Assembly: GCA_021848705.1 (NCBI GenBank)
Contig: JAJZTT010000003.1
Coordinates: 1-42,305, forward strand
Length of the DNA: 42,305 nucleotides
Direction of reading: 5' to 3'
Origin: Pseudomonadota bacterium
GTDB taxonomy: Bacteria > Pseudomonadota > Gammaproteobacteria > Burkholderiales > JABEVD01
Part shown: piece after piece, positions 16,844 to 20,207 of the stretch
Position numbering within the stretch: the stretch's first letter is position 1
Layout: each line of letters begins with the position of its first letter
The notes under the pieces: generated by a model
Databases searched by the model: none
Seen by the model: the letters and a program-made list of their open reading frames with translations, nothing else
What the model was told of the DNA's origin: nothing
Translations under genes and position numbers: made by a program

Positions 16844-17284
16844 ATGACAAGAAATTTCCTCTTCCTTCTGCTCACCCTCTCTGCCGTTTCGGCGCAAGCC
16901 TCGGTGGGCGAATTCATGTTCGTTTCCGGCACTGTCACGGTGAAATCCTCAACGGGACAATCGAGGCAGGCTAAAAAAGGCCAGGAAGTCGATCTGGGCG
17001 ATACCGTCTCGACTTCCACCGCCTCCACCGCCCAGATCAGGATGTCGGACGGCGGATTTCTCGCTGTCAGGCCGCAATCCGAGATCCGTGTGGACAGTTA
17101 TTCCTTTCACGACAAGCGCTCGGACAACAGCACCATCTCGCTGGTCAAGGGCAGCTTCAGGGCGATCACCGGTCTCATCGGCAAGAACAATCCCCGGAAC
17201 GACCTCGTCAGGACGCCCACCGCCACCATCGGCATCCGCGGCACCGACCACGAGGTAGCCTACATCCCCCCGAAGGGAGAATGA
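16844..17284 (+). CDS. Exported FecR-domain protein (N-terminal part of the FecR fold)
   Basis: Signal peptide ending AQA; GDTVST...AQIRMSDGG...LVKGSFRAITGLIGK...TPTATIGIRGT; SD AGGAG upstream. Confidence 0.9.
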   Translation: MTRNFLFLLLTLSAVSAQASVGEFMFVSGTVTVKSSTGQSRQAKKGQEVDLGDTVSTSTASTAQIRMSDGGFLAVRPQSEIRVDSYSFHDKRSDNSTISLVKGSFRAITGLIGKNNPRNDLVRTPTATIGIRGTDHEVAYIPPKGE

Positions 17285-17285
17285 A

Positions 17286-20207
17286 ATGAGCAGATTCCTT
17301 TCTTTCGCACTGCTTTTTCCCGCCATCGCACTGGCAGAAGGGCCGCCTCCCGGCACCTACGACCATGTGAATTCCGGCGGGACCTTCATGCAGACCAACA
17401 CCAGCCTGCTCAATCTGAACCCGGGCCAGACCGGTTATTCACCCGGCATCAATTCGAATCCGGTACCCTATACCGGACCCTCCCCGTTTTCCTCCTTCAC
17501 CCCGGCGCCTTCCGGACAGGGAGCATCCGGAGAATCAAACGGTAAAGGCCAATCCTCCGGAGGAAGCCAGTCATCGAATGGATCTTCGGGGGGCAGGCAG
17601 TCTTCCGAATCTTCAGGAAACGGACAGAACGCGGCAGGACAGACCGGGGGAAGCCAGAATCCTGGCGAAAGACCGGAAACTTTGGGCACCGGCGGCTTCG
17701 GAACAGCCGGAACACCGACCGGGGGCACTGGAGACATGACCGGGGCTTCGACCAATCAATACAACCCGGTCAACATGGAAAACGGCGGAACCACCGTGAA
17801 CGCAACGGAGCAGACTACGACCACGGCAGGCGTGACCACGCCGATCACGAATACCGTCACCTATGCCCCCTACAACCCGAACCTGATCGCGATCGGCATC
17901 TCGGGTCCGAACGGCATAATGTCGCCGTTTTTCGGCACGGCCGGCAATGTCGCCCTCCTTTCTTCCGCCGATATCGCCTACACATCCGGATATCCGTCCG
18001 GCATCAACATCTGCAGTCACTGCTCCTCCTATTCGGGCAGTTATTCTTCGTCGATCAGCCTGGTCGGCGCGTCGGGTCCGGTCACCGGAAGCGCAGCCGG
18101 AATGAACTTCGGAAGATGGACGGTATCGACCGGCCTCATTTCCTCCTTTTCCAGCCCGATCGGCAACCAGTACAATCCGGCCACTCCATGGATCTACGGG
18201 CCGCAGGGCTATATCGATCCCGTTGCGGGCGTCCCGGCGTCGTTGTCCGGCACCTTCAGCTACCAACTGGACGGCTCCCCCCCGCCGATCGACCGTTCCA
18301 CGGGAAATACCGGAACCCTGACTTCCGCTTCACTTTCCGCCGACTTCACCCATCTGACGGTGAACGCAAGCATCGGCCTTTCCATGAACGGGGTTTCCTG
18401 GAGCGCGAACGCAACCGGAATGTCGATCGGCAATGCGCAATTCAGCGCAATGCCCGGATCCGGGCTCACGATCAACCAGGGAGGAAGCCCCTGTTCCGCA
18501 TGCGGAGGGCAATTGAGCGGCGCCTTCACAGGGCAGAATTACGCCGGAGCAATTCTCTCCTACAATCTTTTCGATACCGCCGGTACAAACCTTTACGGCG
18601 CGGCTGCGCTCACCCGGAACTATGCGGGAAACACCAATCCGGTCGTCACCAACGGAACACCCGCCCCGACAGGGAACTATTTCGTGGCCTATTACGGCGG
18701 AGGAATCCAGACTTCCTCGAGCGCAGGAACAACCGGCAACGTGCTGACTTCGTTCGGATCCTCTTCTGTCAGCAGTGGGTCCTACTATTTTTCCTATTCG
18801 ACATCCGTATCCTGCACGAACTGCACGGGCAGTGCATCGGGTGATGTCGCCAATACCGGGATCTATTACGGGACATGGGATTCGGGTACGATCACCAACA
18901 TCTCCGATACCAGATGGTCTGCGAGCCCCGGACAGTTCCACTGGATCACAGGACCGGAAGTCTATCCAGTCTATCTCGCCCAGGTGCTGACGGGAACGGC
19001 CACCTTCCCGCTCGCAGGAGGGACCTCCCCCACCGACCAGAACGGGAATACCGGCACGCTCAATTCCGGTTCGCTCTTCGTCAATTTCGACCAGCAGAAG
19101 GTGGGAATCAGCCTTTCCCTTTCGGTCAATTCCCACAACTGGTCGGTCACCACCCCGGCAGGAAACGAGATGCCCCTACAGGGATCGAACGGGATCGGAA
19201 ACACTTCCTTTTCCGGATTCGGGGGGCTGAGCGGAAGCACAGGGCCTGGCAACCTCAGCATCACCCTGGACGGATCAGCAGCTTCCGGAAACCTTTCCGG
19301 ACAGCTCAGCGGGACGGGCATTACCGGGGCGATGGTCGACTACAACCTGAACGGCAACTCGGCCTCCCTCTACCAGTCGGTGAACGGCGTCGCTGCCTTT
19401 TCTTCCACGCCTTTCAGCACCTCGACCCCCTACCAGCTTGTCGCAATCTCCTCGACCGACCTGCTCTCCACTTCCTCGTATTCCTCCCAGTTCTTTTCCT
19501 CTTCCGGTCTGGGCGCTGCAATCAATGCAATTTCACGAATCAGCGCCTCTGCAGGAAACCTGGCCGGATTCGACGTTTCTCCGGTCGACGGGGGAAGCTA
19601 TGCATCGATCTCCCTTTCCCAGGGAAGCAGCACCGCAACCGACTTGGGCAACGATCCGGTATCCGGCATCAGCTGGGGGCGCTGGCAGGGAGGCGTGATC
19701 AGCTACTCCGACCGGAGCAGCGGATCGGCCGGAACGATCGCCCTGGCAGGAGGGCTGCACTGGATTTCAGGGCCGGTCGAAACCGGGCCGGTGACGCTGC
19801 CCACATCCGGAACCTATACCTACACCTTTGCGGGAGGGACGCACCCGACCGACAACCTTGGCAATGTCGGCGTGCTCAATTCCGCGACGCTCAACGCCGA
19901 TTTCACTGCGCAAACGGTGGGCGTCGGCATCAACGCGACGGTCGCAGGCTCGACCCTGAACGCGCAGGCTTCCGGGGTTCCGATCACCCAGGGGGTGACC
20001 TTCAAGGCTTCCTCTTCCATCCCCTCCGGAACCGCGGGCAACCTCTCCGTGAGCTGCAGCGGAAATTGCGGAACATCGACTTCCGGTACGATCGTGGGTG
20101 CATTCACCGGGGCGGGCGCCACCGGAGCCGGAGTCACGTACATGCTGCAGAAACTGGGCGGAATCAATCCGGGAAGCATTTCCGGAGTCGCCGCTTTCCA
20201 CAGATGA
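17286..20207 (+). CDS. Large exported Ser/Gly/Thr-rich protein with a FecR C-terminal-like segment and three TbpB-like handle/barrel repeats (putative Slam cargo)
   Basis: Own SD (AAGGGAG) and signal peptide MSRFLSFALLFPAIALA; three copies of W-I-x-G-P...G-T-x-x-(Y/F)...P-x-D...G-x-L-x-S-x-x-L-x-x-(D/N)-F; ends GVAAFHR. Confidence 0.75.
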   Translation: MSRFLSFALLFPAIALAEGPPPGTYDHVNSGGTFMQTNTSLLNLNPGQTGYSPGINSNPVPYTGPSPFSSFTPAPSGQGASGESNGKGQSSGGSQSSNGSSGGRQSSESSGNGQNAAGQTGGSQNPGERPETLGTGGFGTAGTPTGGTGDMTGASTNQYNPVNMENGGTTVNATEQTTTTAGVTTPITNTVTYAPYNPNLIAIGISGPNGIMSPFFGTAGNVALLSSADIAYTSGYPSGINICSHCSSYSGSYSSSISLVGASGPVTGSAAGMNFGRWTVSTGLISSFSSPIGNQYNPATPWIYGPQGYIDPVAGVPASLSGTFSYQLDGSPPPIDRSTGNTGTLTSASLSADFTHLTVNASIGLSMNGVSWSANATGMSIGNAQFSAMPGSGLTINQGGSPCSACGGQLSGAFTGQNYAGAILSYNLFDTAGTNLYGAAALTRNYAGNTNPVVTNGTPAPTGNYFVAYYGGGIQTSSSAGTTGNVLTSFGSSSVSSGSYYFSYSTSVSCTNCTGSASGDVANTGIYYGTWDSGTITNISDTRWSASPGQFHWITGPEVYPVYLAQVLTGTATFPLAGGTSPTDQNGNTGTLNSGSLFVNFDQQKVGISLSLSVNSHNWSVTTPAGNEMPLQGSNGIGNTSFSGFGGLSGSTGPGNLSITLDGSAASGNLSGQLSGTGITGAMVDYNLNGNSASLYQSVNGVAAFSSTPFSTSTPYQLVAISSTDLLSTSSYSSQFFSSSGLGAAINAISRISASAGNLAGFDVSPVDGGSYASISLSQGSSTATDLGNDPVSGISWGRWQGGVISYSDRSSGSAGTIALAGGLHWISGPVETGPVTLPTSGTYTYTFAGGTHPTDNLGNVGVLNSATLNADFTAQTVGVGINATVAGSTLNAQASGVPITQGVTFKASSSIPSGTAGNLSVSCSGNCGTSTSGTIVGAFTGAGATGAGVTYMLQKLGGINPGSISGVAAFHR

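Follow-up and report, generated by a model that had tools for sequence, protein, structure and literature searches.

A FecR-like domain divided between two neighboring genes, each with its own predicted export signal, in a Slam-linked operon of Burkholderiales

Can one folded domain be encoded by two genes whose products each carry an export signal of their own? The question is raised by a stretch of 42,305 nucleotides (the window; positions 1 to 42,305 of the forward strand of contig JAJZTT010000003.1, assembly GCA_021848705.1) from a bacterium of the Burkholderiales (Pseudomonadota; GTDB lineage ending in JABEVD01). Two adjacent genes on the + strand, gene 1 (16844..17284, 146 amino acids) and gene 2 (17286-20207, 973 amino acids), lie directly behind a gene for a Slam-like outer-membrane protein. 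A preliminary description of the locus proposed that a FecR domain is genetically divided here just after its Gly-Thr self-cleavage motif, and that the halves are exported separately and reassemble by β-strand complementation. The results presented here reveal that the division is a real gene fission inherited within the genus, a conclusion held with high confidence.

Gene 1 encodes a signal peptide and the larger part of a FecR-like domain. Residues 53-140 match the Pfam FecR family (PF04773) with 45.0 bits (cut-off 24; E 1.5e-11) on profile positions 1-82 of 97, and no single polypeptide of the locus holds the whole domain, three further strands being encoded by gene 2. The C-terminal end of gene 1 reads ...GIRGTDHEVAYIPPKGE, or ...TPTATIGIRGTDHEVAYIPPKGE, before the TGA stop codon at 17282-17284. 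The ATG of gene 2 follows at 17286, one base past that stop and in the +1 frame. The N-terminus of gene 2 reads MSRFLSFALLFPAIALAEGPPPGTYDHVNSGGTFMQTNTSLLNLNPGQTGY..., with PPPGTYDHVN... after a signal-peptide-like segment. Residues 18-55 of gene 2 (17337..17450) correspond to three β-strands that complete the FecR-like fold, as judged from BLASTP to the single-chain (fused) relative P0036 and from a model of a fused relative. In P0036, residues 164-217, directly past the sequence GTDHE, are the counterpart of gene 2 residues 22-75 (BLASTP E 1e-10). The mature N-terminus of gene 2 is thus, as proposed, homologous to the strands located after GIRGT in single chains; the open reading frame (ORF) of gene 2 had been ended at 17460 and actually runs to 20207.

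Relatives of gene 1 are nearly all longer chains. When gene 1 was searched against 1.8 billion cluster representatives, 15,753 matches had E ≤0.001; among the best 150 of these, 149 are 201-2362 amino acids long and only P0002 (147 amino acids) is of the size of gene 1. Scanning the species genomes for the word GIRGTDHE identified 79 loci with 82 ORFs, 81 of which continue in frame past GTDHE; the sole split form is an orthologue of the window locus in genome G004. Of 301 genomes sampled evenly across the order, 40 had a close match (46 matches). The matches include only three short open frames, all from the window genus, and long forms from 22 other genera, one of these forms from the unpublished genome G296. 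A search for relatives with gene 2 residues 1-110 recovered the G004 orthologue only. In G022, from a different family within the order, one ORF of 1484 amino acids (P0039) comes after a Slam-like gene; it reads ...TPTATIGIRGTDHEPVFIPVPAPGQIPLGNPGTYDKVNVGAAYIQT... and ends in a module like that of gene 2; the bodies of gene 2 and P0039 align with a BLASTP E of 1e-73. Distant relatives of 30-40% identity (L007, L008, L010, L011) are single chains with a terminal barrel as well. The best explanation is an ancestral gene whose product had a signal peptide and a FecR-like β domain, then a flexible linker and barrel modules of the type found in transferrin-binding protein TbpB. An architecture of this type is common in Gallionellaceae and other Burkholderiales, nearly always directly behind a Slam/DUF560 gene.

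The family also has members of other composition. Two FecR-headed genes stand in tandem behind one Slam-like gene at L017:4029-6396 (G036) and L059:6184-9536. Some members have a C-terminal Peptidase_S74 'chaperone of endosialidase' domain in place of the barrel (L021:7989-9233; also L022, L023, L025 and L061; Pfam E 6e-6), and others, such as L042, end in Pro/Thr-rich repeats and have no barrel.

An error of assembly or sequencing, or a freshly broken pseudogene, would be a trivial reason for two adjoining ORFs, and the bin that holds the window is fragmented, with 263 contigs, 89% completeness and 5% contamination. Logan contigs of two sequencing runs bridge the junction with no differences and no gaps (X1 record 6, 17024-17398; X2 record 9, 16668-17522), and neither has an indel at 17270-17340 that would join the ORFs; both runs are perhaps source samples of the window assembly and hence are not independent proof of the junction. 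Independent support comes from the identical split in other genomes. The split layout is present in G004, where gene 1 is 95% identical and the junction DNA is the same as in the window, in a second operon of the window genome on another contig (C75), and in the orthologue of that second operon in G002. Including P0002 as a fifth sequence, gene 1 is 64% (C75), 69% (G002) and 70% (P0002) identical to the more divergent copies. Two distinct junction structures occur among the four loci, a gap of 1 nucleotide in the window type and an overlap of 14 nucleotides in the C75/G002 type. Moreover, both ORFs are intact, gene 2 being open for 973 codons, and gene 2 has a complete signal peptide and Shine-Dalgarno-like site that are functionally conserved at low sequence identity. 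An error or fresh pseudogene is therefore highly improbable, and the preliminary description was correct that one FecR-like domain is divided between two genes and that the division is not a frameshift artefact. Run X1 also contains a second variant of lower depth at window positions 16790-17053 and 17369-17531, whose contigs each differ at 5-16 bases; none of these variant contigs spans the junction.

Programmed +1 frameshifting before the TGA codon could in principle fuse both frames into one protein, and gene 2 is indeed in the +1 frame one base past the stop. Such a product would carry a 17-residue hydrophobic segment within a loop that measures 13-23 residues in 75 of 76 fused relatives. 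The paralogous loci also differ in geometry, with an overlap of 14 nucleotides. No slippery sequence or stimulator was noticed, though no search was aimed at one. Recoding of this kind is hardly credible.

The five split forms share one branch among 59 fused sequences (ultrafast bootstrap 100, SH-aLRT 95) in a tree of 125 columns with a midpoint root. A single shared branch agrees with one fission and a later duplication of the operon. Only two SlipAM genes were found in the assembly, one per split operon. The reverse course, in which two genes are ancestral and the single chains arose by fusion, is formally compatible with the tree, since the root was placed by midpoint only and could lie on the branch of the split forms, and short proteins with only a FecR domain do exist. 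Against this course, split forms occur in one genus and long forms in 22 other genera of the order sample, and the distant relatives of 30-40% identity are also single chains ending in a barrel. Fusion would have had to delete the signal peptide with precision and leave behind a loop of standard length, and to do so in every lineage. Fusion of ancestral halves is very improbable, and fission remains the preferred direction.

Where does the cut fall in the fold? An AlphaFold2 model of residues 29-225 of the fused P0039 (197 residues, 65-sequence alignment) has a predicted local distance difference test score (pLDDT) of 94 and a predicted template modelling score (pTM) of 0.87. A long strand at residues 109-122 bears Gly114-Thr115 and is followed by a loop at 123-135 and by strands at 136-150, 153-157 and 161-165 (pLDDT 95-98). 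By alignment, the break in the window maps to the loop at 123-135. The model matches PupR (6ovk_R) across the break with a Z-score of 14.7 over 138 aligned residues (root-mean-square deviation 3.1, model residues 29-187), and BDI_1681 (4m0n), likewise across the break, with a Z-score of 14.2. The strand ranges and the high pTM suggest that strands pair across the break. The model places the strands that follow GIRGT in the same compact fold, in agreement with the earlier assignment of these strands to the FecR domain.

The cut is near the Gly-Thr motif, as the preliminary description stated, but not at the bond. The codons of Gly133-Thr134 in gene 1 are at 17240-17245, and the break comes 12 residues past them, one β-strand later; the idea that the split mirrors the self-cleavage site does not hold, the site not being reproduced by the cut. 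When the signal peptide is left out, the spacing from GTDHE to GTY is 14 residues in the window, and is 13-23 residues in 75 of 76 fused ORFs, with one at 47. The 14-residue loop is of normal length, nothing is missing from the fold, and the cut is a clean one in a surface loop. The same loop takes long inserts in fused relatives, a Pro/Gly-rich repeat in L038 and hydrophobic stretches in P0051 (residues ~150-205), L072, L093 and L097. A loop tolerant of inserts suggests a possible route by which a signal-peptide insert could arise.

Position 75 of the Pfam FecR profile (Gly-Thr 75-76) is occupied by G133 of gene 1, G142 of the fused P0039 and G181 of E. coli FecR, where the position is counted back from the alignment ends on the assumption that the last 2-21 positions are free of gaps. 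All 65 aligned family sequences (alignment A7) have both the Gly and the Thr. The motif is probably homologous to the site of E. coli FecR. According to two published studies, FecR self-cleaves between G181 and T182 and its fragments stay together (PMC12036975), and FoxR self-cleaves between G191 and T192 with fragments that remain associated (PMC11637429). Profile-profile alignment (hhalign) of the family with the single sequence of E. coli FecR gave no significant match (E 0.34), and neither gene 1 nor the family profile recovered a solved FecR protein from the PDB by sequence search, only 5ix9.

Signal peptides were judged with a simple script that combines hydropathy with the -3/-1 rule. 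Each N-terminus combines a single K/R with a hydrophobic core (Kyte-Doolittle >2.5 over 10 residues) and an A-x-A site, with predicted cleavage between AQA and SV in gene 1 (16844-16900) and between ALA and EG in gene 2 (MSRFLSFALLFPAIALA, 17286..17336). The features are present in all four gene 2 copies despite the low sequence identity between the two paralogue types. A Shine-Dalgarno-like AAGGGAG for gene 2 can be read at 17273..17279, within the final codons of gene 1 and six bases 5' of the ATG, and Shine-Dalgarno-like AAGGGGGG and AAGGGAGAG sites precede the start of gene 2 in the paralogous loci. The claim that gene 2 begins one base later with its own Shine-Dalgarno sequence and signal peptide is thus supported. 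An origin of the gene 2 signal peptide by duplication of that of gene 1 was rejected: the cognate signal peptides align no better than background, their local alignment scores being equalled or exceeded by 26, 74, 21 and 22 of 148 background signal peptides. No cysteine is found at the gene 2 cleavage site (MSRFLSFALLFPAIALA followed by EGPPP), and a lipobox is thus absent there. The gene 2 product therefore resembles a soluble or otherwise anchored cargo of type 11 secretion, such as hemophilin.

The greater part of gene 2 was missed in the preliminary description, namely three TbpB-like barrel modules encoded behind a gene for a Slam-like outer-membrane protein. A Ser/Gly/Asn-rich linker of low complexity, evident from the translation (residues 76-195, 17511..17870), separates the strands from three copies of one module. 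A profile of the C-terminal module (A8) detects module 1 at 18096..18617 (E 2.3e-27) and module 2 at 18837..19403 (E 1.2e-30); the C-terminal module itself, a handle and an 8-stranded barrel, occupies 19632..20204 and ends ...SGVAAFHR. Gene 2 matched no Pfam family. The AlphaFold2 model of the C-terminal module has a pLDDT of 94.5 and a pTM of 0.88, and 49 of the 50 PDB matches listed by Foldseek are HphA/hemophilin, fHbp, TbpB, LbpB or NHBA. VIA-align gave Z-scores of 13.8 with the NHBA C-domain (140 aligned residues, root-mean-square deviation 2.6), 11.6 with fHbp, 10.4 with the TbpB C-lobe and 10.4 with HphA, and comparison with the ESM Atlas pointed in the same TbpB/fHbp-type direction. 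The predicted structure suggests that the barrels are of the TbpB type.

The Slam-like protein (15513..16835, + strand, 440 amino acids) has N-terminal TPR repeats (TPR_19 E 2e-12) and a DUF560/SlipAM barrel (31.7 bits, cut-off 22; profile positions 8-288 of 288). Its counterparts at C75 and in G022 likewise combine TPR repeats with SlipAM, and a member of its 90%-identity cluster is named 'DUF560 domain-containing protein'. Of the 82 family ORFs, 73 have a Slam-like gene immediately before them on the same strand, and several of the nine that lack one begin near a contig end. Among 73 ORFs with a complete 3' end, at least 37 close with the barrel-type tail ...G.F.G...Y...G.AAF.R. Taken together, gene 2 looks like a type 11 secretion cargo, with its C-terminal module as a candidate secretion signal domain. 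The pair of Slam/DUF560 protein and FecR-headed protein (79 loci, L019-L097; 15513-20207 in the window) was seen in metagenome-assembled genomes of Gallionellaceae, Sideroxydans, Rhodoferax and other Burkholderiales.

The pairing of DUF560/Slam with a FecR-headed protein ending in TbpB-type barrels is widespread, and was not found in print. A full-text literature search found no paper that joins DUF560 with FecR, or a retention module with FecR. In a survey of type 11 secretion cargo (PMC12282271), FecR is absent from the main text, and PF04773 appears in the supplement only as a co-occurring neighborhood family, beside sigma-70 and TonB families. A tie to the sfz stalk-formation cluster of iron oxidisers was considered and rejected, the main text of its paper having no FecR, DUF560 or TPR. 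The pairing extends candidate type 11 cargo to environmental Betaproteobacteria, including Gallionellaceae and Sideroxydans metagenome-assembled genomes, and, in the window genus, may link it to CHASE2/cyclic-nucleotide signalling.

How might a domain divided in this way be put to use? The cut would have been made by an insert that brought in a stop codon together with the ribosome-binding site, start codon and new signal peptide of a second gene. From then on, gene 1 would yield the first ten strands of the FecR-like fold, and gene 2 the last three strands, the linker and the three barrel modules. Both chains would presumably be exported by Sec, and in the periplasm the N-terminal strands of mature gene 2 may join the open edge of the gene 1 sheet. 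The product would be a non-covalent, two-chain FecR-like module, as with the self-cleaved fragments of FecR and FoxR. The barrels would be handled as type 11 secretion cargo by the neighboring Slam-like protein, on which their export may depend, and the CHASE2 cyclase of the operon, together with a membrane protein that has a cyclic-nucleotide-binding (cNMP-binding) domain, probably senses or controls the process. As a whole, this course of fission, periplasmic re-association and Slam-mediated export seems moderately probable to us; for reassembly by strand complementation, taken by itself, the case is about evenly balanced.

Reassembly is favored by the clean cut, by the precedent of FecR and FoxR, and by conservation. 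In a comparison of two sequences, window and G004, the gene 2 strands (residues 18-55) are identical at 37 of 38 positions, with 5 synonymous codon differences and 1 non-synonymous; the barrels are 88% identical, and the linker is 54% identical with 24 gap columns. The strands appear to be under purifying selection, and as the best-conserved part of gene 2 in the window lineage they count for reassembly. The spacing of 1 nucleotide and the Shine-Dalgarno-like site inside gene 1 suggest coupled synthesis of the two chains.

Three features speak against an alternative in which fission was followed by independence. Gene 1 would then work alone, for example as a partner of the CHASE2 cyclase, gene 2 would be a separate Slam cargo, and its strands would be a relic or repurposed, with no reassembly. 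It is difficult to see in this alternative why the strands should be the best-conserved part of gene 2, why the loop has kept its normal length with no strand lost at the cut, and why synthesis of the chains should be coupled. In its favor, stand-alone FecR proteins of 150-188 amino acids that stop 10-11 residues past Gly-Thr are found in four other genomes of the order (L099, L101, L102, L104; four of the six loci fetched), and a CHASE2-SpoIIE gene adjoins the short FecR gene in two of four loci examined. CHASE2 and FecR-domain neighbors are described in Burkholderia (PMC5192318). A CHASE2-type cyclase gene is upstream in all four split operons (the Pfam run covers the one in the window), and is upstream on the same strand in only 3 of 82 family ORFs, L019 (the split G004 orthologue) and the fused L044 and L085. 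In addition, the N-terminus of the paralogous gene 2' has diverged past detectable similarity. Independence of the two products is possible but rather unlikely.

The short FecR genes of this kind, among them those at three loci (L105:4756-5820, L106:2630-5864 and L107:3136-6189; products of 150-168 amino acids), are each followed by a gene of the OmpA family, and at two of four loci they are convergent with a gene for a CHASE2-SpoIIE phosphatase. A core as large as that of gene 1 apparently can exist by itself, and may serve CHASE2 sensors. Kinship of the N-terminus of the OmpA-family partner to gene 2' or to the fused strands was rejected (E 1.2 and 0.29).

Several observations weigh against fission with re-association and Slam export. 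For the gene 2' N-terminus of C75/G002, neither BLASTP against the window strands (E 0.038, in the wrong register) nor hhalign against the fused profile (E 0.14) gave a significant match, and the suggestion that it retains the fused strands is statistically unsupported. Between C75 and G002, this N-terminus is 53% conserved and gene 1' 83%. The existence of autonomous short FecR proteins ending 10-11 residues past Gly-Thr in other families of the order indicates that gene 1 may yield a stable, functional protein with no need of the extra strands. The signal-peptide calls come from the simple rule described above, and the TbpB-type barrel has weak, sub-threshold support at the sequence level, with an E of 0.26 for the PDB profile and of 0.072, in one of eight, for Pfam TbpB_B_D. 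Finally, it is questionable whether a Slam-type system would pass or tolerate a cargo docked to a periplasmic partner.

A bolder variant would turn such docking into a function. The FecR-like module might serve as a periplasmic anchor for a Slam-exported surface protein, much as the retention module does in LapA-type adhesins, with barrels and linker outside, the module inside, and a hold made non-covalent by self-cleavage at Gly-Thr in fused relatives and by the split in the window genus; a signal could then trigger release, and the CHASE2 cyclase and cNMP-binding proteins of the operon would sense or set the state. This anchor is a speculative and unlikely reading. If true, it would be a new coupling of type 11 secretion to release control and second-messenger signalling.

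The results also bear on the relation of the locus to systems already described. Like FecR and FoxR, it has the Pfam FecR domain, Gly-Thr at profile positions 75-76, a periplasmic fold resembling that of PupR, and the domain present as two chains. Unlike FecR and FoxR, the chains come from two genes with a break 12 residues past Gly-Thr, and anti-sigma domain, transmembrane helix and FecR_C are lacking. E. coli FecR contains DUF4880, FecR and FecR_C in Pfam, whereas gene 1 has only FecR behind a cleavable signal peptide and no DUF4880, transmembrane helix or FecR_C. No sigma-70 or TonB-dependent receptor families were found among the window ORFs of at least 150 amino acids scanned at E 1e-6. 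The operon is Slam-linked and CHASE2-linked and is not an iron-signalling anti-sigma system; by domains, membrane helix and neighbors, the proteins are not FecR/FoxR-type anti-sigma factors. Folding and cleavage of E. coli FecR take place in the cytoplasm, and transport is by Tat, whereas each chain here has its own predicted Sec-type signal, so assembly would have to follow export. In 2025, a study of E. coli FecR offered the speculation that correct folding is secured by the cleavage of a single chain instead of the encoding of two (PMC12036975). The locus would be a conserved natural counter-case, with one fold in two genes with separate export signals, and it makes this idea testable with two small proteins.

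The resemblance to Slam and type 11 secretion systems (TbpB, LbpB, fHbp, NHBA, HphA) lies in a DUF560/SlipAM and TPR gene that adjoins one whose product is predicted to end in a TbpB-type handle and 8-stranded barrel. Unlike known Slam cargo, the product has no lipobox, has three barrel modules rather than one or two lobes, carries a FecR-like N-terminal domain in its relatives, and belongs to environmental Betaproteobacteria. A likeness to the retention module of RTX adhesins (LapA, MpIBP; 5ix9) was also detected, in the first ~70 residues of the FecR-like domain (PDB profile E 1.4e-5). Fold comparison with 5ix9 gave a VIA Z-score of 7.2 (72 aligned residues, 28% identity), a range in which a match can reflect a common arrangement, and the NCBIfam model retention_LapA (NF033682) scored 27.3 bits (E 3.4e-6), under its cut-off of 50. 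The N-terminal position in a large exported surface protein is shared with LapA-type modules, but secretion there is of type 1 rather than Slam-like, and the likeness extends over just half the domain. Partners of the LapG/LapD type were not seen. In its size, its end point and its CHASE2 operon, gene 1 is also like short periplasmic FecR proteins beside CHASE2 sensors, such as the LysM-FecR protein with a CHASE2 histidine kinase in Burkholderia. It differs from them in that it comes from a Slam-linked fused family and in that the next gene holds the missing strands and is not of the OmpA family.

The first gene of the apparent operon encodes a fusion of a CHASE2 sensor with an adenylate/guanylate cyclase (13258..15462, + strand, 734 amino acids; Pfam CHASE2 E 9e-58, Guanylate_cyc E 9e-25). 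The four genes between 13258 and 20207 are separated by 50, 8 and 1 bases in order, and a scan for promoters and terminators gave nothing that delimits the operon. A single metatranscriptome contig covers 16847-17033 only, which does not prove expression of gene 1 or gene 2. Downstream on the + strand, 20313..21551 encodes a BrkB-like membrane protein with a C-terminal cNMP-binding domain (Pfam cNMP_binding E 2.7e-19, Virul_fac_BrkB E 6e-12), a possible reader of the cyclase signal; the corresponding gene is also 3' of gene 2 in G004. A link of cyclic-nucleotide signalling to the split proteins can be inferred from this arrangement. Both split operons are flanked by cyclic-nucleotide readers, the paralogous operon by a Crp-like regulator that adjoins its cyclase (L015:5263-5988, - strand). 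An ORF of 396 amino acids on the - strand (20229-21419) overlaps the cNMP-binding gene and is probably spurious, because the + strand ORF bears the Pfam domains. Upstream, on the opposite strand, 8297-13186 contains genes for an FGE-sulfatase-like protein, a WD40-repeat protein and a TPR protein, and downstream, 22968-31293 contains AMP-binding, MMPL, polysaccharide deacetylase, short-chain dehydrogenase and methyltransferase genes.

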